From Defluviitaleaceae bacterium (GTDB lineage: Bacteria > Bacillota > Clostridia > Lachnospirales > WRAX01), in the NCBI GenBank assembly GCA_009785555.1, contig WQWB01000003.1, positions 2,280 to 66,279 of the forward strand: a DNA stretch of 64,000 bases, read 5' to 3'. Positions 4,982-60,040 of this stretch are shown in pieces. The notes under the pieces are model-generated. The model searched no databases. It was not told the origin of the DNA and saw only the letters and a program-made list of their open reading frames with translations. The translations under genes and the position numbers were made by a program. How positions within the stretch are numbered: position 1 is the first letter of the stretch; the number at the start of each line of letters is the position of its first letter.

Positions 4982-6016
4982 TCATAAAATCTCCCCTTGA
5001 TACCGTGTTATTTTATTATCTTTTATTCCCTTAGCAAGTACCGCTTGTAAAATATCCTCTTTGCTGTCGGCAACCTCATTTGCCGGGAGGTCAAGCATTA
5101 CATCCTCAACCTCTGCCGGGGTGTAGCGGAATTTTCCCGCAACCGCGCCATGAAACTCGCCGTCAATCAATAAATACCATAGAGTATCAGGATATGGGTG
5201 TGAATATCGCTCCTTCAACCAATGGTCGTTAGCTTTGACGAGCATATCATTTCGGTGCATGACAAATATAGACTTCGGCGGTTCGGCATTGTAGGTTTTG
5301 AGCAATGCAATATCATCAGGCAACACATAACCGTGGTCAGTTTCCGCAAGCAATTTTTCTTCGACAAGAGCGGCAATCGCCACCTTGATATCCTTGTCCG
5401 TCCATTTGTAGAAAGACTTCACCATCCTTTCATCAAAGCACACAAGCCGATATGCAAACCGCTTTATAATGATTTTTAAGGCTTCGTTCCGTGTATGCTT
5501 TTGCATATCCGCGTCGGGGAACATATCGGAAAATTTATGCCAACCCCTGTCCCATTCGCCGTCGTACTGGTCCTCATAAATTAAGAACGCTTCTTGTAAA
5601 CGGTGTAGAGCAGGCGTAATTTCCTTAACCAACATACCTGTTTCTTCCTTCATCTGTTGTATGGTCAACGGTTCACGCTCAATCAATTCCAAAAGAGTTG
5701 TATGGCGAAACGTGGGTTTGGTTAAGGGCTTGGTAAAAGCGGCGGCGAACAATTCCAAATCCTCCGGCACTATCCAGCCGAGATTTCCACCCGCAAATCG
5801 CCCTTTGATTAAGCCATGTCTTAATTGGCGTTTGCGGTTGTATCCAATATCATCAAAGTCCGCGCGGAACGACAAGGATGGCGGGTCGCCAAAGCCATGC
5901 CAATAAACATTCAACCCTGGTTGCGAATCAACGTACAGTGCATTGTATTCGTCCTCGTTTGCCTTACGGGTTAAGAATTGCCGCTCCATGCGGAGGGCGG
6001 TTATTTTATCGTTCAT
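4982..6016 (-). CDS. winged-helix DUF1006/YcaQ (AlkZ-like) family protein (tentative)
   Basis: Weak recognition: N-terminal ...LRMERQFL... and C-terminal ...WYLLIDGEFHGAVAGKF... resemble YcaQ-type proteins. Needs HMM confirmation. Confidence 0.45.
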   Translation of the reverse strand: MNDKITALRMERQFLTRKANEDEYNALYVDSQPGLNVYWHGFGDPPSLSFRADFDDIGYNRKRQLRHGLIKGRFAGGNLGWIVPEDLELFAAAFTKPLTKPTFRHTTLLELIEREPLTIQQMKEETGMLVKEITPALHRLQEAFLIYEDQYDGEWDRGWHKFSDMFPDADMQKHTRNEALKIIIKRFAYRLVCFDERMVKSFYKWTDKDIKVAIAALVEEKLLAETDHGYVLPDDIALLKTYNAEPPKSIFVMHRNDMLVKANDHWLKERYSHPYPDTLWYLLIDGEFHGAVAGKFRYTPAEVEDVMLDLPANEVADSKEDILQAVLAKGIKDNKITRYQGEIL

Positions 6017-6030
6017 GGCGTTGTCCTCCG

Positions 6031-6381
6031 TTATAAAATATAAACATTATTTCCGTCCGGGTCTTTTAATTCCATCTTTTCGCCACCCCACGGAGTGATA
6101 AACGGCGGCGGAATCTCATACCCTTTTTGCGTAATTTCGGTGTACGTTTTCTGATGGTCGTCACACTCAAAAACCAAACAAACCGCTCCATCTGTGTGCT
6201 TACCCCATTTGTTTTCATCCCAAATCCGAATGAGCGGAGCATCCTTGATGTAGCCCAAGAACACGCCGTCGTAATTCGGATCATCTTCTATTACGGGGAT
6301 TCCAAGAATATCACGGTAAAATTCAACCAACCGTTTCGGATTTTTAGATGTGATGTTCATGCCTTTGAAATTCTTAATCAT
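6031..6381 (-). CDS. VOC (glyoxalase/bleomycin-resistance fold) family protein
   Basis: Small beta-alpha-beta-beta-beta type sequence (...LVEFYRDILGIPV..., ...ELKDPDGNNVYI). Start moved to ATG 6381 behind GAGAGGAAAAAGCA; the ORF-track start 6435 lacks an RBS. Confidence 0.65.
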   Translation of the reverse strand: MIKNFKGMNITSKNPKRLVEFYRDILGIPVIEDDPNYDGVFLGYIKDAPLIRIWDENKWGKHTDGAVCLVFECDDHQKTYTEITQKGYEIPPPFITPWGGEKMELKDPDGNNVYIL

Positions 6382-6609
6382 TGCTTTTTCCTCTCGCAGG
6401 GCAATTATTGCCAAGTTGACCATTCCAACCACCATTTTTTATCTTTGGCGTTATAATATTCATCATCTATGCACTTGAATTTTTGTGCGGTTATGTGTCT
6501 TCTGTTAGATTTATGGTGAATATTGAATACCGCTTAAGCGTCGTATGTATTTATATGGCAATATAATTAAGTGTCACCCCACCCATAATAATACCTTACA
6601 ACACTCTCG

Positions 6610-25114: not shown

Positions 25115-25161
25115 TATAGAGGAATTACTTTAAAATTATTCTACGAACATTCCTCTGTATA
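25115..25161. repeat. family 1 element, short copy
   Basis: TATAGAGGAATTACTTT...ATTATTCTACGAACATTCCTCTGTATA. Shares both termini with 22143..22289 but lacks most of the interior. Confidence 0.7.
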
Positions 25162-25254
25162 GCTGTTCAACTTGAAAACGGTCTTTGTTTTCAAGTTGAA
25201 CCTTACAGTAATTGCATCTTATCGAACCATTTTATGGTTTAGTGAGTATATCAC
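25159..25254 (+). repeat. family 2 hairpin element
   Basis: ATAGCT + perfect 15-bp stem GTTCAACTTGAAAAC/GTTTTCAAGTTGAAC (7-nt loop) + conserved tail CCTTACAGTAATTGCA.CTTATCG...CATTTTATGGTTTA..GAGTATAT. Copies also at 38013..38162 and 57128..57223. Confidence 0.8.
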
Positions 25255-25327: not shown

Positions 25328-27955
25328 ATGAAAAAGTATGTCTACACCTTCGCAGAAGGCAACCTCAGTATGCGTAACCTTCTTGGCGGCAAAGGCGTTA
25401 ACCTTTGCGATATGATCAACCTCGGCGTACCCGTCCCCCCCGGCTTTATCGTTTCTACGGAAACATGCGCCGACTATAACGCCGGCGGCAAAGCCTTAAG
25501 CGCCGACATGAAAGCGCAGATCGACAAATGCATGACCGTAGTTGAAGGGCAAATCGGCAAAAAGTTCGGCGACGAAGCAAACCCGCTTCTGGTCAGCGTT
25601 CGCTCCGGCGCGCGCGTATCCCTACCTGGCATGATGGACACGGTGCTTAACCTCGGGCTTAATGATGTTTCGGTTGAAGCCTTAGCCAAACTTACGAACA
25701 ACCCACGCTTCGCCTACGATTCGTACCGCCGCTTTATCATGATGTTCGCCGACGTCGTTACCGGCGTGGACAAGCATTCCTTTGAGCATACACTTGAAGA
25801 GTTCAAAGTTAGCAAGGGTTATGTAAACGATACGGATCTTACTGCGGACGATTGGAAAGCTGTTTGCGAAATCTTCAAAGATATCTACAAAAAAGACCAA
25901 GGCGCGAGCTTCCCGCAAGACGCTAAGGAACAGCTATACGCAGCCGTAGGTGCGGTATTCAGATCCTGGGAAAACGAGAGAGCCATCTACTACCGCAAAA
26001 TGAACGATATCCCGCATGAATGGGGTACGGCCGTTATCGTGCAATCCATGGTTTTCGGCAATATGGACGAAAACTCCGGTTCGGGCGTTATTTTCTCACG
26101 CAATGCCTCTACAGGCGAAAACAAAATCAACGGCGACTTTTTGATGAACGCGCAAGGCGAAGATGTTGTGGCCGGCATTCGCACACCGGAGCAGCTTGAC
26201 AAACTTGCAACATTAAAACCGGAAATATATACCAAACTTGTGGATATCAACAATATGCTTGAAAAGCATTACAGAGATATGCAGGATATGGAAATTACAA
26301 TTGAGCAGGACAAGCTGTATTTCCTTCAAACAAGATCCGGTAAACGCACGGCGCAATCCGCAGTTAAAATTGCCGTAGACATGGTAAACGAAGGCATGTG
26401 GTCTAAAGAGGACGCACTTGTAAATGTACCCGCGGCCGATATTGTACAATTGCTTCTTCCAACCTTTGACCCGGATGAATTAAAAACAGTAAAGCAAATC
26501 GGCAAAGGGCTTAACGCTTCGCCCGGCGCAGCATGTGGTAAAGTCGTTTTTAATACAGCAGAAGCAAAGGAAGCCGTCGCAAAAGGCGACAAAGTCATCC
26601 TCGTACGCCAAATGACAACAGCTGATGACCTTGAAGGTATGCACCTCTCTCAAGGTATCCTTACGGCAAAGGGTGGTATGCTTAGCCACGCCGCCGTTGT
26701 GGCCAAAGGTATGGGGCGCTGCTGTGTTTGCGGTTGTGAACAAATCAAGTTCAATGAAGAAGCCGGTTATTTCGAGCTTGGCGGCGTAAAAATCAAACGC
26801 GGCGACGTTATCTCTCTTGACGGTACAACAGGTATGATCTACGACAAGGAAATCAAAACTGTTGCTCCAAATCCATTTGAAAATAAAGACTTCGCAACGC
26901 TTATGACCTGGGCGGACGAAGTACGCACATTGACAGTTCGCACAAACGCAGACGCACCTAAGGACGCGCTTAAAGCCCTCGAGTTCGGCGCACAGGGCAT
27001 CGGTCTCACACGTACGGAGCATATGTTCTTCGAGCCGGACAGAATCCCCAAAATGCGTAGCATGATCCTCGCTGACAGCGAAGAGGAGCGCCGCGCCGCG
27101 TTAAACGAGCTTCTCCCATTCCAAAGAGCCGACTTCAAAGGCATTTTTGAAGCTATGAAGGAACTTCCGGTTACCATCCGCCTCCTTGATCCACCGCTCC
27201 ATGAGTTTATGCCGGAAAATGAAAATGATTTTAATGCAGTTGCCAAACTTACAGGCAAACCTGTAGATGAAATTAAGAAAAAAGCGGCCGCTTTACATGA
27301 AGAAAACCCAATGATGGGCCACCGCGGCTGCCGTCTCGCCGTCTCCTACCCAGAAATAGCGGAAATGCAGACACGCGCTATCATCGAAGCCGCTATCGCT
27401 GTTAAAAAAGAAAAGGGCTATAACATCATACCGGAAATTATGATTCCGCTGATTGTTGAAATCAAGGAGCTTCGTTTCGTAAAAGATATTATCGACAAAA
27501 CCGCAAAGGCTTTAATTGCGGAATCCGGTATTTCTCTTGACTACATGGTCGGCACAATGATAGAGATCCCACGCGCCTGCCTCACGTCCGACGATATCGC
27601 AAAGGACGCAGAGTTCTTCTCATTCGGCACGAACGACCTTACACAGATGACATACGGTCTCTCACGCGATGATGCTGGTAAAATCCTTGAGGACTACCAA
27701 GAACGCGGCATATTCGCGAACGACCCAACCGCAAAGCTTGACAGAACCGGCGTTGGCCAGCTTATGAAGATGTCTGTAGACAAAGGCCGTACAACGCGCC
27801 CCACAATCAAACTCGGCATCTGCGGTGAGCACGGCGGCGAACCGTCGTCTGTGGAATTCTGCCATATGATTGGGTTGGACTATGTCTCATGCTCACCCTA
27901 CCGCGTACCGATCGCCAGATTAGCAGCTGCTCAAGCGGCGATAAGAAATAAATAG
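25328..27955 (+). CDS. ppdK: pyruvate, phosphate dikinase
   Basis: 875 aa. ATP-grasp N-terminus, phosphohistidine region ...GGMLSHAAVVAKGMG..., PEP/pyruvate TIM-barrel ...FFSFGTNDLTQMT... Confidence 0.95.
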   Translation: MKKYVYTFAEGNLSMRNLLGGKGVNLCDMINLGVPVPPGFIVSTETCADYNAGGKALSADMKAQIDKCMTVVEGQIGKKFGDEANPLLVSVRSGARVSLPGMMDTVLNLGLNDVSVEALAKLTNNPRFAYDSYRRFIMMFADVVTGVDKHSFEHTLEEFKVSKGYVNDTDLTADDWKAVCEIFKDIYKKDQGASFPQDAKEQLYAAVGAVFRSWENERAIYYRKMNDIPHEWGTAVIVQSMVFGNMDENSGSGVIFSRNASTGENKINGDFLMNAQGEDVVAGIRTPEQLDKLATLKPEIYTKLVDINNMLEKHYRDMQDMEITIEQDKLYFLQTRSGKRTAQSAVKIAVDMVNEGMWSKEDALVNVPAADIVQLLLPTFDPDELKTVKQIGKGLNASPGAACGKVVFNTAEAKEAVAKGDKVILVRQMTTADDLEGMHLSQGILTAKGGMLSHAAVVAKGMGRCCVCGCEQIKFNEEAGYFELGGVKIKRGDVISLDGTTGMIYDKEIKTVAPNPFENKDFATLMTWADEVRTLTVRTNADAPKDALKALEFGAQGIGLTRTEHMFFEPDRIPKMRSMILADSEEERRAALNELLPFQRADFKGIFEAMKELPVTIRLLDPPLHEFMPENENDFNAVAKLTGKPVDEIKKKAAALHEENPMMGHRGCRLAVSYPEIAEMQTRAIIEAAIAVKKEKGYNIIPEIMIPLIVEIKELRFVKDIIDKTAKALIAESGISLDYMVGTMIEIPRACLTSDDIAKDAEFFSFGTNDLTQMTYGLSRDDAGKILEDYQERGIFANDPTAKLDRTGVGQLMKMSVDKGRTTRPTIKLGICGEHGGEPSSVEFCHMIGLDYVSCSPYRVPIARLAAAQAAIRNK

Positions 27956-38012: not shown

Positions 38013-38162
38013 ATAGCTGTTCAACTTAAAAACATTTTGTTTTCAAGCTAAACCCTCCAACATTTGTTATAGCTGTTCAACTTGAAAACGGTCTTTGTTT
38101 TCAAGTTGAACCTTACAGTAATTGCACCTTATCGGATCATTTTATGGTTTAACGAGTATATT
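38013..38162 (+). repeat. family 2 hairpin element: one degenerate half-copy plus one full copy
   Basis: 38013-38056 is a degenerate hairpin (GTTCAACTTAAAAAC...GTTTTCAAGCTAAAC). 38069-38162 is a full copy nearly identical to 25159..25254. Confidence 0.8.
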
Positions 38163-39133: not shown

Positions 39134-39219
39134 CGGAGACGGTGGGATTCGAACCCACGTGGGGTTGCCCCCAACCTGATTTCGAGTCAGGCTCGTTATG
39201 GCCACTTCGATACGTCTCC
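39134..39219 (-). tRNA. tRNA-Ser (anticodon CGA)
   Basis: Minus-strand cloverleaf: acceptor GGAGACG/CGTCTCC, anticodon stem CCTGA/TCAGG with loop CTCGAAA, long variable arm, T-arm GGGTTCGAATCCC. CCA not encoded. Confidence 0.85.
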
Positions 39220-39297
39220 CAAAATAACCGTGGAGAGTATACACGATTTCCCAATATTTTGCAAGTAAAATTTTTGTGTGGTTATTTTTAATGCGCG

Positions 39298-40842
39298 TTA
39301 CTCGTGGTGGCGCGCTTTAATATACTCAAGCACCGCGTCATGACCGACCAACAAATCGCGGATGTAAATGGGTATGCGGATGTCTGGCATTAGTGTTTCG
39401 TATGGATAGTCCGGCCAGAACATAGCGAATGTCTGCGACGCCGCAAAACGCATGTTCGGCGCATACACGAACCCTCGTCTATGCGATGTAGCCGGAAGAC
39501 TGATACCGTAAAAAAAGTTAGGTGACTGCGCCGCCGGTTCGCCTATTATATACACGCCGTCAACGCGCGTTCTAAGGTACGCCGCAGTCATAACCGCGGC
39601 CGACGCAGTACCCCTATCCGTAATAACGTAAATTCCGTGAAACAAATCATTATTCTCTCGTAAAAATATACCAAGCTCCGGTACTGCCGGTAAAAACGCT
39701 CCACCGCCATTGCCGCGTAAATCTAGAACGAAAATTTGTTTTTCACCACATTCTATCACCGATGTAACCATGGCATTTATGGTCTCACGGAACTCATTAT
39801 TTAAATCCATCGGGTCGGATAATTCAGAAAAACGCACATAATGAAACGATCTTGCTCTTACATACAACATATTATTTTCATATAAGTTTTCAAAAAAGAA
39901 CGGTGCTTGTTGATGTTTATTATATAACATACCAACGCCAATATCAAGGCGAACGGTTTCAATTTCCTCAAACTCGCTTATTGGTATGTTTTGGATTGAT
40001 ACGATAACTTCTTCACCATTTTCATCCAGCAAATAATATTTAACAATATTATCACTATCTACAACACCAAAAAACCTCAACGCTTCCGGCCATGCAAGCA
40101 TTCTCATAGCTGACCTTGGCATTTCATATCTGCTTTCATACATAATTATTGCCGACAACACATCTATAACTTCTAAAATCGGTATGCCATTTATTTTTTC
40201 AAGACGGTTGCCCAACAACCACTCATATTTCAGCGGTGCGCCAACAACAAATACCCCATCGGCAAAATACGCAAAGTCCAACGGAAACCGCTCCGTAAAA
40301 AACGGGTGCGGATCCGGGCGAAAACTGTACCCAGAATGAATATCATTTAAAAGTGAAAATATTTTCCGCATATTAAAATATAGCTCATAATCTTCAAGAT
40401 ATGGTATATTTTCAATTAAGTTATTTACTAAGTATATAAATTCTTCAAGAAATTCATAATTAGTAAAGCTATCGTTTTCATTTGCTGTCATTCGTAAAGT
40501 AACCCAAAAACTTGTAAACATTAAGTTTGGATTTTGGTGGTTAATAAAGTATTCAATCTGCTCTAACCTATCATCTACTGTACTATATAGCATCGGTGAA
40601 TTATTTAACACCGGGTGTTCTGACGTAAAGTAACCTAAAAATATCCTTAACAAACTTTCCCATTCTTCGTCCCTATTAAGCTCAATTATATTATTCAAAG
40701 TCCATGGATTGTCGTGTCTATCACGCATGGCTGCGTTTACAGTTAAACTCATCGATGCGATTATACCTACAATGATAGATAATGAAAATATTGTTATTAT
40801 TTTTTTACAGACATTCCACATATTTTTCCTCCTCATATCCAA
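39298..40842 (-). CDS. S41-family (tail-specific/C-terminal processing type) peptidase-like secreted protein
   Basis: Signal anchor. ...FVLDLRGNGGG... and ...TDRGTASAAVMTAAYL... resemble the S41 catalytic core. AT-rich gene. Confidence 0.6.
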   Translation of the reverse strand: MDMRRKNMWNVCKKIITIFSLSIIVGIIASMSLTVNAAMRDRHDNPWTLNNIIELNRDEEWESLLRIFLGYFTSEHPVLNNSPMLYSTVDDRLEQIEYFINHQNPNLMFTSFWVTLRMTANENDSFTNYEFLEEFIYLVNNLIENIPYLEDYELYFNMRKIFSLLNDIHSGYSFRPDPHPFFTERFPLDFAYFADGVFVVGAPLKYEWLLGNRLEKINGIPILEVIDVLSAIIMYESRYEMPRSAMRMLAWPEALRFFGVVDSDNIVKYYLLDENGEEVIVSIQNIPISEFEEIETVRLDIGVGMLYNKHQQAPFFFENLYENNMLYVRARSFHYVRFSELSDPMDLNNEFRETINAMVTSVIECGEKQIFVLDLRGNGGGAFLPAVPELGIFLRENNDLFHGIYVITDRGTASAAVMTAAYLRTRVDGVYIIGEPAAQSPNFFYGISLPATSHRRGFVYAPNMRFAASQTFAMFWPDYPYETLMPDIRIPIYIRDLLVGHDAVLEYIKARHHE

Positions 40843-40908
40843 ATCAAATAAAATATGAGGCTATTATTTTTTATAACAGCCTCATATTATTAATTATATC
40901 ATTGTTTA

Positions 40909-44853: not shown

Positions 44854-46221
44854 CTACCTGTACTTGTTCAAATATCCGTGCTTGCTCTGCCTCTTACGGC
44901 GTATTACCTTAGTAATCACATACACCGCAATAACTGAAACCAACGCAAAGATTATCCAATAAGGCACAGCGGAGCGGGTAAAGAAAATGCCGACGAAAAT
45001 GTCAAAATGGTAATCTATATCCGAAATAATCGTACGTTCCCGCACGCTGTGCGCCGCAATAAGCGACCCATGGTAAATTATCCTATCACCCACGGAGTAG
45101 GTAATAGTCGCCACAACCTGCCCTTCCGTTATTGGTGCCCGAAGCAGGTTTACCCCATTTTCCCCAAGATAAATAAGCCCTTCCACAAAAACAATATCGC
45201 GCTTCAAATTTCCAAGCATATCCGTGCTCATAAAATACCTAACGCCTTCGGTTATAGACAGGTACATAATGTACGGGTCCTGCCTGCGCGGATTGTACAT
45301 GCCAATCTGATATACATAATCGCCAGCATAGGCGAAAGTGAACGTATCAAAAAAGTTAAAGCCATATTCAAACAACGCAGTGGCGTCGTGCCACCTGCCC
45401 GGATCCGGCGAATTGCCGATTATGGCGATCAGCTCCCTGTCGCCTTGCCGCGCTGTTGCCGCTAAGGTATCACCCGCCGCAGCGGTAACGCCCGTACGCA
45501 TACCAGTGGCGTATGGGTAGAAAAACTCGCTCGCGCTTCTAATCAATTCATTTCTGGTGTGGCGGGTATGGCCACGCATCCAAGTCGTTTCGCCAGAGAC
45601 TTGGCGCAAAAACGGGTTTTGCATCGCGCCGCGCACGATAAGTGCCATATCGTACGCCGTGGTAACGTGGTTTATGTTATGCGCGCCCTGTGCGTTTACG
45701 AAACTGGAGTTAAACGCCCCAAGCTCCCGCGCCTTCGTATTCATAAGCGTTGCAAACCGCCGCTCCGCGCGAACCCAGGTTACGTCGCTCTCTCCATAAT
45801 AACTCCGCGCCACGTTTATGGCAAGAATGTTAGCCGAATCCGCGCCCGACAGGAAAAAAGTGGCGCGGATAAGCTCTGCAACCGTAACCTCCTCGCCTAC
45901 CGTATGGTGCGTGCGCGCCGCGCCCTGCGGCGTTTGGTTAATCTCGTTGCCTGCAATAAGCACATCGCTTGGCTCAAAAAAATCAAGCACTACAAGGGCG
46001 GTTATAATCGCCGTCAACCCAGCAGGGTACATACGCGCGTGTTCGTTATACCCAAAGGCGACGATACCCGTCTCCGCATCCATCAAAACGGCGCGTTGCG
46101 CGGCAATTTCCGGCACGGCATAGCCATCCGCCGCATCGGCGTAAACATTTGCCGATGCTTGCAATGCATAAATTATAATTAAAATCGCAATCAATTTTCT
46201 ACGAAACAATCTAATCACCAA
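44854..46221 (-). CDS. PBP5/DacB-like (S11) protein with substituted catalytic motifs; C-terminal TM anchor
   Basis: Aligns by eye to DD-carboxypeptidases, but SxxK reads GLTA (...MYPAGLTAIITAL...), SGN reads SGA (...FLSGADSAN...) and KTG reads RTG (...GMRTGVTAAAG...). Confidence 0.7.
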   Translation of the reverse strand: MVIRLFRRKLIAILIIIYALQASANVYADAADGYAVPEIAAQRAVLMDAETGIVAFGYNEHARMYPAGLTAIITALVVLDFFEPSDVLIAGNEINQTPQGAARTHHTVGEEVTVAELIRATFFLSGADSANILAINVARSYYGESDVTWVRAERRFATLMNTKARELGAFNSSFVNAQGAHNINHVTTAYDMALIVRGAMQNPFLRQVSGETTWMRGHTRHTRNELIRSASEFFYPYATGMRTGVTAAAGDTLAATARQGDRELIAIIGNSPDPGRWHDATALFEYGFNFFDTFTFAYAGDYVYQIGMYNPRRQDPYIMYLSITEGVRYFMSTDMLGNLKRDIVFVEGLIYLGENGVNLLRAPITEGQVVATITYSVGDRIIYHGSLIAAHSVRERTIISDIDYHFDIFVGIFFTRSAVPYWIIFALVSVIAVYVITKVIRRKRQSKHGYLNKYR

Positions 46222-46399
46222 CTAAGATTTTATAGGATATTCTTTAACAAAGAATGTAATTAACGCACAAAACTCACCATGCAAATCATTATTTATACTT
46301 ATAAACCAAAAAACACATTCAAATAGCATGACAAAGTATAGTAAGTACTTTCATTCTTCAAAAGTAATGCTTATTTTCTAGTATTTGTTCTTTAAAGCA

Positions 46400-47374
46400 T
46401 TATAATAAGCCTTTGTACTGAAAACACATATCCAAAACGATATCTGTCTCATTATTACTATTAAACATCTCGATAACATATTTTAATGCATCAATACATA
46501 TTTCAATATCAGTCCTATTCGCATTTACACTTTCATGAACAATTTTATTTCGTCTTTTTCTGAACTTATCAACTCTTTTGAATTCGAAACTGTTCATTTC
46601 TCCACTAATCTCCAGTATATTAAGCTTTTCACTTACAGCATAATCTAATATTATTTTCCTTCTTTCTTTGTTGACTCCTTTAATCTCAAGAAATCTATTA
46701 AGTCGTTCGTTAACATAGAACTCAATAATAAACCAAGATAGTAACAACGAAACCGATAAATGAGCTTTATGATATTCACATAGACTTTTCATAATTAACG
46801 ACAAAATCTTTATTTTTTCATATGAATTAATAATTTTCAATAAATTATCTTCCATTAAACCTATAACACTTTTATCCAAAACATCATAACTCTCTCCAAG
46901 AACAAGAGTTTGCTTAGATATAAATCTTTGAGGGAAATGCTCCTTTCCGAATCCTCCCGGAACATTCGAATGAATAAATTTACTATTTTCAAAAGTAACA
47001 TTAGCGCAATCTGAGTTTGTTATTTCATGAATATCAAAATAGTAAAAGTTTTTTTGTTTGTAATAAGATGAAGTAAACACTAAGTATATTGCGTTCAAAT
47101 AATTTAAATACTCATTCCAAAGCTCTAAGTCATCATTTACATATTGAGAATTATTTTGACGCTTTGTGTTTTTATGTTCTATATCTGCATTATAGAACAT
47201 AATCATACCATCTTTTGCAATTTTTAACTTGCATTGTCCCATATTTATAGAATATTCTATTGCACTCATTATTTTCATATAAGAATCATCATCGATATTT
47301 TTAAAATTTGGAATATCTCCTGCCCAATATTTTTTCGAAGGATAAAAAGCAATAAACATTTCTTTTTGTTTCAT
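46400..47374 (-). CDS. hypothetical protein with C-terminal HEPN-like RNxxxH motif
   Basis: Very AT-rich 324-aa ORF. ...FRKRRNKIVHES... (codons at 46552-46535) inside a predicted helical C-terminal region. No family recognised for the N-terminal 230 aa. Confidence 0.4.
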   Translation of the reverse strand: MKQKEMFIAFYPSKKYWAGDIPNFKNIDDDSYMKIMSAIEYSINMGQCKLKIAKDGMIMFYNADIEHKNTKRQNNSQYVNDDLELWNEYLNYLNAIYLVFTSSYYKQKNFYYFDIHEITNSDCANVTFENSKFIHSNVPGGFGKEHFPQRFISKQTLVLGESYDVLDKSVIGLMEDNLLKIINSYEKIKILSLIMKSLCEYHKAHLSVSLLLSWFIIEFYVNERLNRFLEIKGVNKERRKIILDYAVSEKLNILEISGEMNSFEFKRVDKFRKRRNKIVHESVNANRTDIEICIDALKYVIEMFNSNNETDIVLDMCFQYKGLL

Positions 47375-47527
47375 ATTCGTTCCTCTGTCAACATATTTTT
47401 ACTTGCATCATTTTCATTGATACATATATAACAATTCGCATTCACGATTTGAATGATATTTATCTACTTCCACGTCTCATTGTTATTAATGCAATAATTG
47501 TATTAAAGCGCTGCGTGTATGTCACTT

Positions 47528-57127: not shown

Positions 57128-57223
57128 GTGATATACTCGCTAAACCATAAAATGGTACGATAAGGTGCAATTACTGTAAGATTCAACTTGAAAACAAAGA
57201 CCGTTTTCAAGTTAAGCAGCTAT
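57128..57223 (-). repeat. family 2 hairpin element (reverse orientation)
   Basis: Reverse complement matches 25159..25254 (hairpin GTTAAGCAGCTAT.. end at 57223; GAGTATATCAC end at 57128). Ends 17 nt upstream of the alr start. Confidence 0.8.
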
Positions 57224-57277
57224 ACTAACCTTATTATAGGTTTTTCGGGCTATTTTGTCAATAGTTACAAGGGTTTG

Positions 57278-57850: not shown

Positions 57851-57914
57851 ACAAAAACCCCTTTGTTAAGGCTATGTAGGACATGGTTCCAATTATTCGT
57901 TGACCCTACATTAA

Positions 57915-58220
57915 TGTATACCATATTTCACTCAAAGCCACATAATACCTCCGTATCAGTGCAGCCAAACCGCAATCATACTATTACATCATAAGAAAAG
58001 TATTTCAGGGTCAAGTAAAAACGGTGATGTCAGAAATGCTTTACAGTATAAAAAACATGGGCTGGTCATAAATAAATCTGACACAGCCCATATTATAACG
58101 GGTAAAATTAGTGTAAATGAAGATATTACGGAGCTGCTACGGTTGTACCTCAAAGCGCACTACAGCGGTGATGTTGTTGCGCTGGCGGAGATTCGGCAAT
58201 ATCAGTTTAAAACTATTTGA
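57915..58220 (+). pseudogene. start-less open frame (possible 3' remnant of a disrupted gene)
   Basis: My own translation: 101 sense codons ending ...GDVRNALQYKKHGLVINKSDTAHIITGKISVNEDITELLRLYLKAHYSGDVVALAEIRQYQFKTI*. No ATG/GTG start and no RBS. Confidence 0.3.
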
Positions 58221-58246
58221 AGATTTTAACAAAAAGTTATAAAACA

Positions 58247-58804
58247 TCATCCGAACAAATTTTTCAACCCTGCAATTAATGAATTAAAGCTATTTGACGT
58301 ATTGTTTTCTATGGATAGATATTTGCCTATTGCGCGAGATCCCAAACTTTTCTGATATGTACCGCTGGTTATTTTCAATAACTCGTCCGATACATTTTCT
58401 ATATTATCTGGTATACGGTATCTTGCTTTTTTAGCGAATTTAGCAAGGCTATTATTTGAAAAGCCTAAGCCTATTTCAACAGCTGCCAAGTCTCCGAAAT
58501 AATAACTCTCAAGCTCTCTACATGCAATTCTTACTAAAACCCCTTTTTTGCCTGTTTTATCACATAAATTGGTTAAATTATTTTTTATCGACACACAGTC
58601 TCCCGAATCTTGATCGCGAAGCACTAAGAACAAAGAATCCAGCTTCTGCCAATACATAATCTTTTTCACAAGTTGCTTTTCAAGGTCTTGCTTTCCTTCA
58701 AATACAATAAAATGAGTGTTAATGTTAGGTAATAACCGTGGCAAAACCCCCTCTAACATGTAACGAGCAGAAGGTTCTTCAACTAGACAAACAAGTGTTT
58801 TCAT
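58247..58804 (-). CDS. DUF4276-type, TOPRIM-like protein
   Basis: MKTLVCLVEEPSARYMLEGVLPRLL..., ...LVLRDQDSGDC..., ...RIACRELESYYFGD... match my memory of the DUF4276 consensus (acidic strand + DxD patch). ATGA overlap with the ATPase gene. Confidence 0.55.
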   Translation of the reverse strand: MKTLVCLVEEPSARYMLEGVLPRLLPNINTHFIVFEGKQDLEKQLVKKIMYWQKLDSLFLVLRDQDSGDCVSIKNNLTNLCDKTGKKGVLVRIACRELESYYFGDLAAVEIGLGFSNNSLAKFAKKARYRIPDNIENVSDELLKITSGTYQKSLGSRAIGKYLSIENNTSNSFNSLIAGLKNLFG

Positions 58805-59997
58805 TTCGGATCAACACCTCCAAAAAACCCTTGTTTCCAAAGATAACCCATTTTATCCCCGACTTCCATGTATGCTTTGATTTGTTTATCATTTTTTGCA
58901 GGTTTTATATCCGTATATCCATTTCTTTTCTCAAGCCAAAACACTTCTTCTAATTTTATAGCGTTTAAGAAATCAGGGCTGTGTGTTGAAACAAAAACCT
59001 GCCCACCCCGATTAGCATAAGCACGAAATTCTTCTGCCAATTCATAAAGCACTGATTGATACAGCTGATTTTCCGGTTCTTCAACACATAAAAGCGGGAA
59101 AGGATTAGGATCATACAACAAAACTAAATATGCTAACATTTTCATTGTTCCGTCAGAAACGAAGCGAGATAAAAAATAATCACCAAATTCTTCATCTTTA
59201 AATCTAAGTACAACTCTACCTTCATCATTTGTATCTGCTTTTACATCAACAACACCCGGCACACGCGCTTTCATTATGGATACTATTTTATCAAAAACAT
59301 CTTTGTGGTTCTGATATAAATATTGAACAACATTGCTCAGATTTTCGCCGTGTTGCGACAAATGCTCGGCGTATCCAGCATCTCGTTCTTGACGTGCACG
59401 GTTTATATGAAAATCGGATATATGCCAATTCTCTATAAGTTCACCTAAAGCTACTGCGGCGGGAAATCTATTGTTAATAGCCAATCCCCTAACTGCAAGT
59501 ATATCTGGAGCTTTCAAAGTTTGCTCTTCCCGCTTTAAATCTTTTTCTTCCATTACTTTATCTAATTCATTTATAACCGCTTTTCCTGTCCCATTAGAAA
59601 AATCTAAAAAATGCCATGCATTGCCAGCTGTACCGCGTCTATAGCGAAGAACTTCTCTTTCAACGGTAATACGCCCTACATTATTTTTATTTATATGCAA
59701 TAAATATGTGATAAGTGGAGACCCCTTCTTAGCCTCGCGTCGAAACTTCAATTCAATCTCAATAGGACCTGAAGAACCTCTGCTTAGCACTTCATCAATA
59801 CCTCGTGACCCTCCAAATTTTGCCAATGCAGAAGTAACATTGCCATTCAATGCTTCTTTTAAAAAACCAAAGACACTAAAAAGCGTACTCTTTCCCGTCC
59901 CATTAGCACCAACCAATACGCAAAAATTAGGAATATCACGCATTTCAACATCTCTGAATGTTTTGAAGTTCTTTAATCTGATTGATTCGATTTTCAT
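58801..59997 (-). CDS. soluble ABC-type (SMC/RecF/OLD-like, AAA_21-type) ATPase
   Basis: Walker A ...LVGANGTGKSTLF..., long insert, Walker B ...PLLCVEEPENQLY..., H-loop ...VFVSTHSPDFL. No transmembrane domain. Confidence 0.75.
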   Translation of the reverse strand: MKIESIRLKNFKTFRDVEMRDIPNFCVLVGANGTGKSTLFSVFGFLKEALNGNVTSALAKFGGSRGIDEVLSRGSSGPIEIELKFRREAKKGSPLITYLLHINKNNVGRITVEREVLRYRRGTAGNAWHFLDFSNGTGKAVINELDKVMEEKDLKREEQTLKAPDILAVRGLAINNRFPAAVALGELIENWHISDFHINRARQERDAGYAEHLSQHGENLSNVVQYLYQNHKDVFDKIVSIMKARVPGVVDVKADTNDEGRVVLRFKDEEFGDYFLSRFVSDGTMKMLAYLVLLYDPNPFPLLCVEEPENQLYQSVLYELAEEFRAYANRGGQVFVSTHSPDFLNAIKLEEVFWLEKRNGYTDIKPAKNDKQIKAYMEVGDKMGYLWKQGFFGGVDPK

Positions 59998-60040
59998 TAA
60001 TATTCACCTCAAAATTTATTGTTGACAATTAACTTAAATC

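Follow-up and report, generated by a model that had tools for sequence, protein, structure and literature searches.

A probable stand-alone, horizontally acquired copy of the candidate anti-phage system HEC-01 in a Defluviitaleaceae bacterium

The closest described counterpart of the gene pair reported here is HEC-01, Hma-embedded candidate 01, which combines an ATP-binding cassette (ABC) ATPase with a TOPRIM protein carrying an OLD-like metal-binding site (Payne et al., bioRxiv 10.1101/2024.01.29.577857). In cold-seep genomes HEC-01 belongs to the more abundant candidate defence types, contributing more than 1% of systems, and one cold-seep HEC-01 conferred on Escherichia coli B protection from one or more of the phages T7, T5 and T4 (2026, Nature Communications, PMC12881386). 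The pair examined here lies in a 64,000-nucleotide stretch of contig WQWB01000003.1 (positions 2,280 to 66,279; assembly GCA_009785555.1) of a Defluviitaleaceae bacterium, hereafter the window, and consists of an ABC-type ATPase gene and an overlapping gene for a protein of the Pfam family DUF4276. It is probably (we estimate a probability of about 0.7) a copy of HEC-01, listed by PADLOC as a two-gene candidate anti-phage system, that occurs on its own, arrived by horizontal transfer and was inserted with an ABC exporter gene on one side and the alanine racemase operon on the other. The locus is a new copy of a catalogued candidate system and not a new kind of system; HEC-01 is widespread, yet its phenotype data conflict, and with the window locus a Clostridia host now supplies a clean case of the pair standing alone.

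A second described relative is the eight-gene, methylation-based MADS of Pseudomonas aeruginosa, in which the ABC-type ATPase Mad3 is paired with the DUF4276 protein Mad4. Deletion of either mad3 or mad4 lowers defence, so that each is needed, and the loss of mad5 is tolerated only when mad2 or mad3 is deleted as well (Maestri et al., bioRxiv 10.1101/2023.03.30.534895); since the loss of mad3 rescues the otherwise lethal mad5 deletion, the Mad3 ATPase belongs to the toxic arm of the system. The Menshen study assigned DUF4276 to the TOPRIM proteins as a new member and recognised it as the Mad4 homologue (PMC12065111), and in the PARIS paper DUF4276 is among the Pfam domains that annotate the tree of AAA15/21 ATPases (PMC11464382). 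No study of how HEC-01 or DUF4276 pairs work came to light in full-text literature searches. A preliminary description of the locus had presented it as a candidate uncharacterised OLD/PARIS-like module with a different TOPRIM-like partner, and had known of no experiments on a DUF4276 version; the literature overtakes these three points. The system had been described in 2024 (bioRxiv 10.1101/2024.01.29.577857), and its name in PADLOC, a database that the preliminary description had itself proposed to consult, removes the novelty, an outcome foreseen there; HEC-01 has been tested twice, once with a negative and once with a positive outcome (PMC12881386); and DUF4276 was already in print as a TOPRIM family (PMC12065111).

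The two genes and their translation signals are arranged as follows.

58801-59997, reverse strand: ABC-type ATPase gene, 398 amino acids, the ATPase component of HEC-01
58247-58804, reverse strand: DUF4276 gene, 185 amino acids, encoding a predicted metal-dependent nuclease effector of TOPRIM fold
58801-58804, reverse strand: ATGA stop/start overlap of the ATPase and DUF4276 genes, read from the sequence
about 58817-58821, reverse strand: GGAGG ribosome-binding site of the DUF4276 gene, within the 3' end of the ATPase gene
60005-60010, CACCTC on the forward strand: GAGGTG ribosome-binding site before the ATPase gene
59998-60040, reverse strand: 43-nucleotide spacer from the exporter stop to the ATPase start, measured on the sequence

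Both open reading frames (ORFs), the motifs quoted for them, the ATGA overlap and the 43-nucleotide gap to the exporter gene are exactly as the preliminary description had reported them, and the overlap couples the two genes translationally. The pair is identified as HEC-01 because both proteins have full-length matches to PADLOC models. The ATPase matched PDLC04144 at 1.1e-191 (635 bits; residues 1-398 on model positions 1-395 of 395), followed by PDLC04182 (7e-121) and by nine or more other ATPase models of HEC-01; the small protein matched PDLC04143 at 5.8e-73 (residues 1-183 on model positions 1-183 of 190), followed by PDLC04202 (8.6e-30) and eight more HEC-01 TOPRIM models. The ATPase match thus adjoins a TOPRIM match on the same strand with a 4-nucleotide overlap, and the protein families, gene order, orientation and OLD-like metal site are those of HEC-01. 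The window copy differs in its housekeeping surroundings and its Clostridia host, and it lacks the Hma embedding through which HEC-01 was found, which PADLOC detection does not need. The A and B labels of PDLC04143 and PDLC04144 appear to be swapped: the ATPase best matched "HEC-01B" and the TOPRIM protein "HEC-01A", while every other HEC-01A model represents an ATPase and every other HEC-01B model a TOPRIM protein.

The large protein is a soluble ABC ATPase of the SMC/Rad50/OLD type, which bears out its initial placement in the SMC/RecF/OLD group. The family search proposed at that stage returned AAA_21 (1.6e-28) and AAA_15 (1.6e-20) for the ATPase and DUF4276 for its partner, as expected, and the AlphaFold2 model of the ATPase (predicted local distance difference test score, pLDDT, 82; predicted template modelling score, pTM, 0.84) had its best Foldseek matches in PtuA, Rad50 and SMC heads, with E-values of about 1e-13. 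The protein carries a Walker A motif (GANGTGKST; G30-x4-G35-K36-S37), an SDGT signature motif (S281-D-G-T284), a Walker B motif (LLCVEEPENQL; L302-L-C-V-E306-E307-P-E) and an H-loop (VSTHSPDFL; H339); all four are invariant among 39 ATPase homologues, including the SDGT of the signature and the EEPE of Walker B. Since the motifs of both proteins are invariant in homologues from many phyla, they are not chance occurrences. The Walker B motif, with its EPE, and the H-loop are OLD-like; an hhalign comparison aligned the region from Walker B to the H-loop with residues 291-353 of P2 Old (86.7% probability, E 4.4e-6), and the N-terminus resembled the OLD nuclease of retron Eco8 (phmmer, E 5e-4). 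A further segment at about residues 190-220 (NWHISDFHI...AEHLS..GENLS; window positions about 59338-59430, reverse strand) is invariant or nearly so across phyla, and residues 196-218 are the only part of the AlphaFold2 model with pLDDT below 50; as a conserved segment modelled at low confidence, it could be a candidate switch or interface for binding the partner or effector, or the trigger.

The small protein matched Pfam DUF4276 at 4.5e-12 (47 bits against a gathering cutoff of 30.2) and contains the motifs LVCLVEEPS, LRDQDSGD and IACRELESYYFGD. Its AlphaFold2 model, built from 38 homologues (pLDDT 95, pTM 0.90), has strands at residues 3-8, 29-34, 57-65 and 89-95, which put E9/E10 just after the first strand, D64-Q-D66 at the end of the third and E97/E99 just after the fourth. 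The predicted three-layer alpha/beta fold, with a glutamate following the first strand and a DxD following the third, is that of the TOPRIM superfamily. Only two structures in the Protein Data Bank (PDB) matched the model in Foldseek below 1e-3, 6NK8 and 6NJV (template modelling scores, TM, 0.55 and 0.51; best E 1.8e-4), and in both the matched part is the TOPRIM-containing C-terminal region of a class 2 OLD nuclease; in a viral structure library the highest TM-score belonged to a RloB-like phage protein (TM 0.55), at a non-significant E of 0.038. Among 100 representatives of clusters at 50% identity, E9, G37, D64, E99 and S172 never vary, and at least 90% of the representatives share D66, E97, R92, C70 and C95. 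Taken together, the Pfam match, the modelled fold and the conserved acidic residues favour the TOPRIM-type site that had been proposed for this protein; this reading agrees with the published analyses, and E9 (with E10), D64-x-D66 and E97/E99 are the candidate catalytic residues suggested by the model.

Other systems also pair an ABC-type ATPase with a nuclease, and the locus shares some features with each of them and differs in others. The MADS ATPase is distant: against the NCBIfam MAD3 equivalog NF047739 the window ATPase scored 120 bits, below the cutoff of 420, and the PADLOC mad3 model matched it at 4e-25, against 1e-191 for HEC-01; the window contains no other mad genes. PARIS shares the split layout of an ABC ATPase gene (AriA) and a TOPRIM gene (AriB) (PMC11464382), but AriB is a DUF4435 protein, whereas the window partner belongs to DUF4276; a Pfam search of the latter at E <= 0.1 returned no DUF4435, and the 10 PADLOC families that it matched include no AriB model. 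PADLOC AriA models matched the window ATPase at 3e-28 and 1e-23, far below the HEC-01 scores, over lengths and ranges that mirror the generic Pfam AAA_21/AAA_15 matches; the 50 best Foldseek matches of the ATPase include no AriA structure, and AriB is likewise absent from the top structural matches. In the OLD family (P2 Old; the class 2 proteins of Burkholderia pseudomallei and Xanthomonas; Gabija GajA; the retron Eco8 effector) an ABC ATPase is likewise combined with a TOPRIM domain, but within a single polypeptide, whereas the window has two separate genes, which sets it outside the OLD family; the window small protein had no Toprim_Old match (Pfam lists only DUF4276), the insert regions of the ATPase differ, and the pair is not accompanied by a UvrD/GajB-type helicase or by a reverse transcriptase. 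AbiL (AbiLi/AbiLii) and RloA/RloB also have two genes, for an AAA_21-like ATPase and a small divergent TOPRIM protein (RloB); AbiLi matched the window ATPase weakly (6e-22), the Pfam families differ, and the window small protein matched neither AbiLii nor RloB, so that the pair does not qualify as AbiL. The solved structures closest to the window ATPase are those of Septu and retron-associated PtuA (Foldseek E about 4e-13, TM about 0.45), but the partner of PtuA is the HNH nuclease PtuB, whereas that of the window ATPase is a TOPRIM protein. The first interpretation of the pair as a split OLD-like nuclease therefore holds as a fair description of its architecture; it does not extend to membership in OLD or PARIS, given that Toprim_Old and DUF4435 matches are lacking and that the best structural matches of the ATPase are PtuA, Rad50 and SMC heads, not AriA or OLD.

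The pairing is a property of the whole family. The DUF4276 subfamily drew matches from more than 4,500 clusters at 90% identity, and its relatives comprise 1,041 clusters at 50% identity (E <= 1e-3); the 150 listed matches of these clusters are all 121-314 amino acids long, too short to include an ATPase fusion. Among 185,579 species genomes, those with a DUF4276 relative number at least 562 and are distributed over many unrelated phyla. In all of the 80 loci that were fetched, from many phyla, an ATPase homologue with 55-74% identity stands directly upstream of the DUF4276 gene, which answers positively the question of pair co-occurrence raised in the preliminary description; the two genes overlap by 4 nucleotides in 69 of the 76 complete loci (65 with ATGA, 4 with GTGA) and by 1 nucleotide in 6 more. 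Pairwise distances are correlated between the two proteins (r = 0.47; Mantel test, 0/999); the ATPase and DUF4276 proteins co-evolve and their pairing is obligate. Clustering of the neighbours of related loci did not reveal a conserved third gene.

The neighbourhoods themselves are highly variable, with an Hma signature in a minority, and most related loci are stand-alone. The HmaB (DUF1156) methylase was found in 12 of 117 upstream neighbours and the HmaA (SNF2) helicase in 7 of 132 downstream neighbours; DUF499 was found in two of the latter, and type I methyltransferases in three neighbours. A homologous pair (ATPase WP_011153560 and DUF4276 protein WP_011153561, the latter about 40% identical to the window protein) is carried by plasmid pSYSM of Synechocystis sp. 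PCC 6803 (record 25994-27735), where it is surrounded by RelE/HigA, nucleotidyltransferase/DUF86 (HEPN/MNT), HNH and phosphorothioation (dnd)-associated methyltransferase genes. This carrier of the pair, Synechocystis PCC 6803, is a genetically tractable model organism. A defence context, which the preliminary description had proposed to check, is thus found around some relatives in the form of Hma, restriction-modification and toxin-antitoxin genes; the window copy does not share it, being an isolated two-gene islet and not part of a defence island. Scanned against PADLOC, the remaining 57 ORFs of the window gave matches in 25 families, with no Hma model among them and no restriction-modification or MADS system; the matches were generic only, and would correspond to RecQ, a cysteine desulfurase, a radical SAM protein and the nucleotide-binding domain of the exporter. 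A second mad3-like PADLOC match (6e-33) lies outside the pair and is most likely this same exporter domain; a second HEC-like ATPase in the window was considered and rejected, as the exporter is the only other ABC-type P-loop protein.

These neighbourhoods bear on the possibility that the pair is an orphaned accessory of Hma or MADS, a restriction arm that would require the Hma helicase, methylase and ATPase and would be inert or decaying when alone. Such an origin would fit the discovery of HEC-01 inside Hma (bioRxiv 10.1101/2024.01.29.577857), the approximately 10-16% of related loci with HmaB upstream or HmaA downstream, the position of mad3 in a toxic arm counteracted by a methylase, the failure of stand-alone HEC-01 to protect in the test by Payne et al., and the lack of methylase or Hma genes in the window. 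Against it stand the approximately 85% of related loci that have no Hma neighbours, the intactness of both window ORFs with all family-invariant residues, the MAD3 score of 120 against the 420-bit cutoff, the protection reported for a singly cloned HEC-01 in E. coli B (PMC12881386), and the selection of candidates by Payne et al., who shortlisted them partly for being common outside hma loci too (bioRxiv 10.1101/2024.01.29.577857). On balance an orphaned accessory is unlikely, and a self-sufficient HEC-01 pair is preferred.

The family is nearly absent from phages: no match was found among 50,697 phage genomes and a single one among 2.9 million IMG/VR contigs, a relative with 50% identity to the DUF4276 protein (IMGVR_UViG_3300025711_000083, 6001-6543). 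This rarity, which contrasts with the typically phage- or satellite-borne PARIS, led to the rejection of a PARIS/Old-like phage-borne lifestyle. The DUF4276 family is also rare on plasmids. Identity across phyla (Bacillota, Desulfobacterota, Chlorobiota, Verrucomicrobiota, Pseudomonadota) is 55-77% for the ATPase and 50-71% for the DUF4276 protein, and the ATPase alignment has 78% mean column identity; recent wide horizontal transfer and strong constraint are both possible causes.

Conservation at this level is one of the points in favour of another interpretation, in which the pair is a selfish addiction or mobile-element maintenance module, or a DNA repair or processing complex resembling SbcCD, RecF or RecN, without anti-phage function. 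The ATPase fold is common to Rad50, SMC and RecF, the Pfam text for AAA_21 reads "putative AbiEii toxin, Type IV TA system", and the pair stands amid housekeeping genes and may share a transcript with the exporter. Yet its patchy distribution (the at least 562 matching species genomes), driven by horizontal transfer, the foreign composition of the window pair, the variable neighbourhoods with recurrent restriction-modification, Hma and toxin-antitoxin genes but no repair-gene partners, and the published Mad3/Mad4 genetics together with one phage-protection result (PMC12881386) make an addiction or repair role distinctly improbable and speak for the anti-phage function of HEC-01.

The foreign composition of the pair is visible in the 200-nucleotide GC profile and in the GC content at third codon positions (GC3), which delimit an islet with one additional frame.

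57851-60040: AT-rich islet of about 2.2 kb, holding the pair and a remnant-like frame
57915-58220, forward strand: open frame of about 101 codons that lacks a start, revealed by six-frame translation within the islet and running convergently to the pair

Mean GC content is 0.449 over the window but 0.365 over the pair, a value undercut by only 7 of 249 segments of equal size, so that the AT-richness noticed in the preliminary description is real; GC3 is 0.26 and 0.31 in the two genes against 0.47-0.59 in the flanking genes. Because the neighbours have a GC3 of about 0.5, the low values of the pair argue for horizontal acquisition. The islet is bordered by host genes of normal composition; the flanking genes (ABC exporter, GNAT, alanine racemase, HD, TraB/GumN, uridine-kinase-like) are housekeeping genes, and the nearest relatives of the exporter identify the host as a Defluviitaleaceae-like Clostridium. 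A repeat search for insertion scars found no noteworthy direct or inverted repeats at the islet flanks, and an empty insertion site was not found: the nearest exporter relatives (about 75% identity, from Defluviitaleaceae metagenome-assembled genomes) are without synteny, and a metagenome scan with the alanine racemase as query gave no match above 49% identity. Two other contigs carry the pair, but their DNA is 100% identical to the window, so that they represent the same strain and are not independent evidence. The frame at 57915-58220, which ends in ...ITELLRLYLKAHYSGDVVALAEIRQYQFKTI*, has no ATG, GTG or TTG start giving at least 50 amino acids, and searches of Pfam, PHROGs and the 80 related loci gave no homologue of it; the start-less frame seen in the preliminary description is thus present, while its standing as a gene remnant is plausible but unproven. 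A passenger gene that came with the insertion and has since decayed is one possibility. Two small ORFs downstream of the pair (97 and 92 amino acids) matched no Pfam family; their normal GC3 suggests that they are host genes.

The islet could also be regarded as a relic of an old insertion, with the pair as a passenger that looks intact but is neither expressed nor functional. No promoter or terminator belonging to the pair was detected, the adjoining start-less frame suggests a decaying islet, and a close host relative that would show retention of the locus is missing. Nevertheless, both ORFs are full-length, contain every residue that is invariant in the family and have good ribosome-binding sites; a strongly foreign GC3 speaks for a recent acquisition with little amelioration; and the 43-nucleotide gap permits read-through transcription from the exporter gene. 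A relic is highly improbable in view of these features, and a recently acquired, functional HEC-01 remains the favoured interpretation.

As a caveat, several observations weigh against this interpretation. HEC-01 expressed in E. coli MG1655 deltaRM gave no protection from any phage of the panel (bioRxiv 10.1101/2024.01.29.577857), and the positive report from E. coli B includes neither a mechanism nor mutants (PMC12881386); its representative may or may not be close to the window subfamily. The TOPRIM assignment of the small protein draws on a predicted fold, with moderate TM-scores (about 0.5), and on motif geometry; sequence searches of the PDB with DUF4276 gave no significant match to solved structures, and hhalign comparisons of DUF4276 profiles with P2 Old reached probabilities of 0.6% and 2.2%, which are not significant, the best of these alignments placing E9 on the region of the TOPRIM glutamate of Old (residues 391-436). 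In the promoter scan upstream of the pair, the best candidate was a 9/12 match that would leave no 5' untranslated region, and the total of promoter-like sites near the pair did not exceed the expectation from shuffled sequence; the sequence scan detected no convincing promoter or terminator of its own, which makes expression of the pair in its host uncertain. The unusually high conservation across phyla is atypical of fast-evolving defence genes. Finally, complex formation, trigger, substrate and outcome are reasoned by analogy with other systems.

The domain identities, coupling, co-evolution and defence-type distribution of the pair are observations from which a mechanism can be proposed, with PARIS as the most plausible working model by analogy: an ATPase scaffold that would release a TOPRIM nuclease upon a trigger. 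Coupled translation produces the ATPase and the DUF4276 protein together, and the two would form a complex. The ABC ATPase heads, whose catalytic motifs are intact, would dimerise on ATP, and the ATPase would act as a sensor or scaffold that holds the TOPRIM protein inactive, by analogy with AriA/AriB of PARIS, PtuA/PtuB of Septu and the OLD and Gabija proteins. An infection cue, which could be a protein of the phage or abnormal nucleic acid, would shift the state of the ATPase and free or activate the DUF4276 TOPRIM protein, which would bind a divalent metal via E9, D64/D66 and E97/E99 and cut phosphodiester bonds in DNA or in RNA, possibly tRNA; the outcome would be growth arrest or abortive infection. 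Embedded copies of the Mad3/Mad4 type plausibly discriminate self from non-self by methylation; the window copy cannot do so, since no methylase or Hma gene is linked to it. A more speculative proposal, doubtful at present, is that stand-alone HEC-01 pairs of the highly conserved subfamily use a mechanism that has not been described for ABC-ATPase/TOPRIM systems, for example a chromosomal, methylation-independent sensor whose DUF4276 TOPRIM partner would cut a universally conserved RNA such as a tRNA or rRNA; if true, cleavage of a conserved RNA would account for the high conservation and for the one negative heterologous test. At the level of the family, the obligate coupling, the predominance of loci not embedded in Hma, the near absence from phages and the unusual conservation are of value in their own right, and help in choosing representatives and mutants for mechanistic work on HEC-01.

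Elsewhere in the window, an intergenic element of about 95 nucleotides is present in three copies with approximately 94% identity (57128-57225, reverse strand; 25157-25254 and 38068-38161, forward strand), one of them just upstream of the alanine racemase gene. The element did not match Rfam at the gathering threshold; it holds a long perfect hairpin (CAACTTGAAAAC...GTTTTCAAGTTG) with a predicted RNA folding energy of -22.4 kcal/mol (z = -2.6), and could be a repeat resembling repetitive extragenic palindromes or miniature inverted-repeat transposable elements, or a shared regulatory or terminator element. Two other islets of low GC content (0.32-0.38) occur at 45500-47400 and 39251-40850. The former contains a 324-amino-acid ORF (46400-47374) without a Pfam family, beside a D-Ala-D-Ala carboxypeptidase gene; the latter contains a 514-amino-acid ORF with a weak Peptidase_S41 match and adjoins a tRNA-Ser(CGA) gene at 39134-39219.

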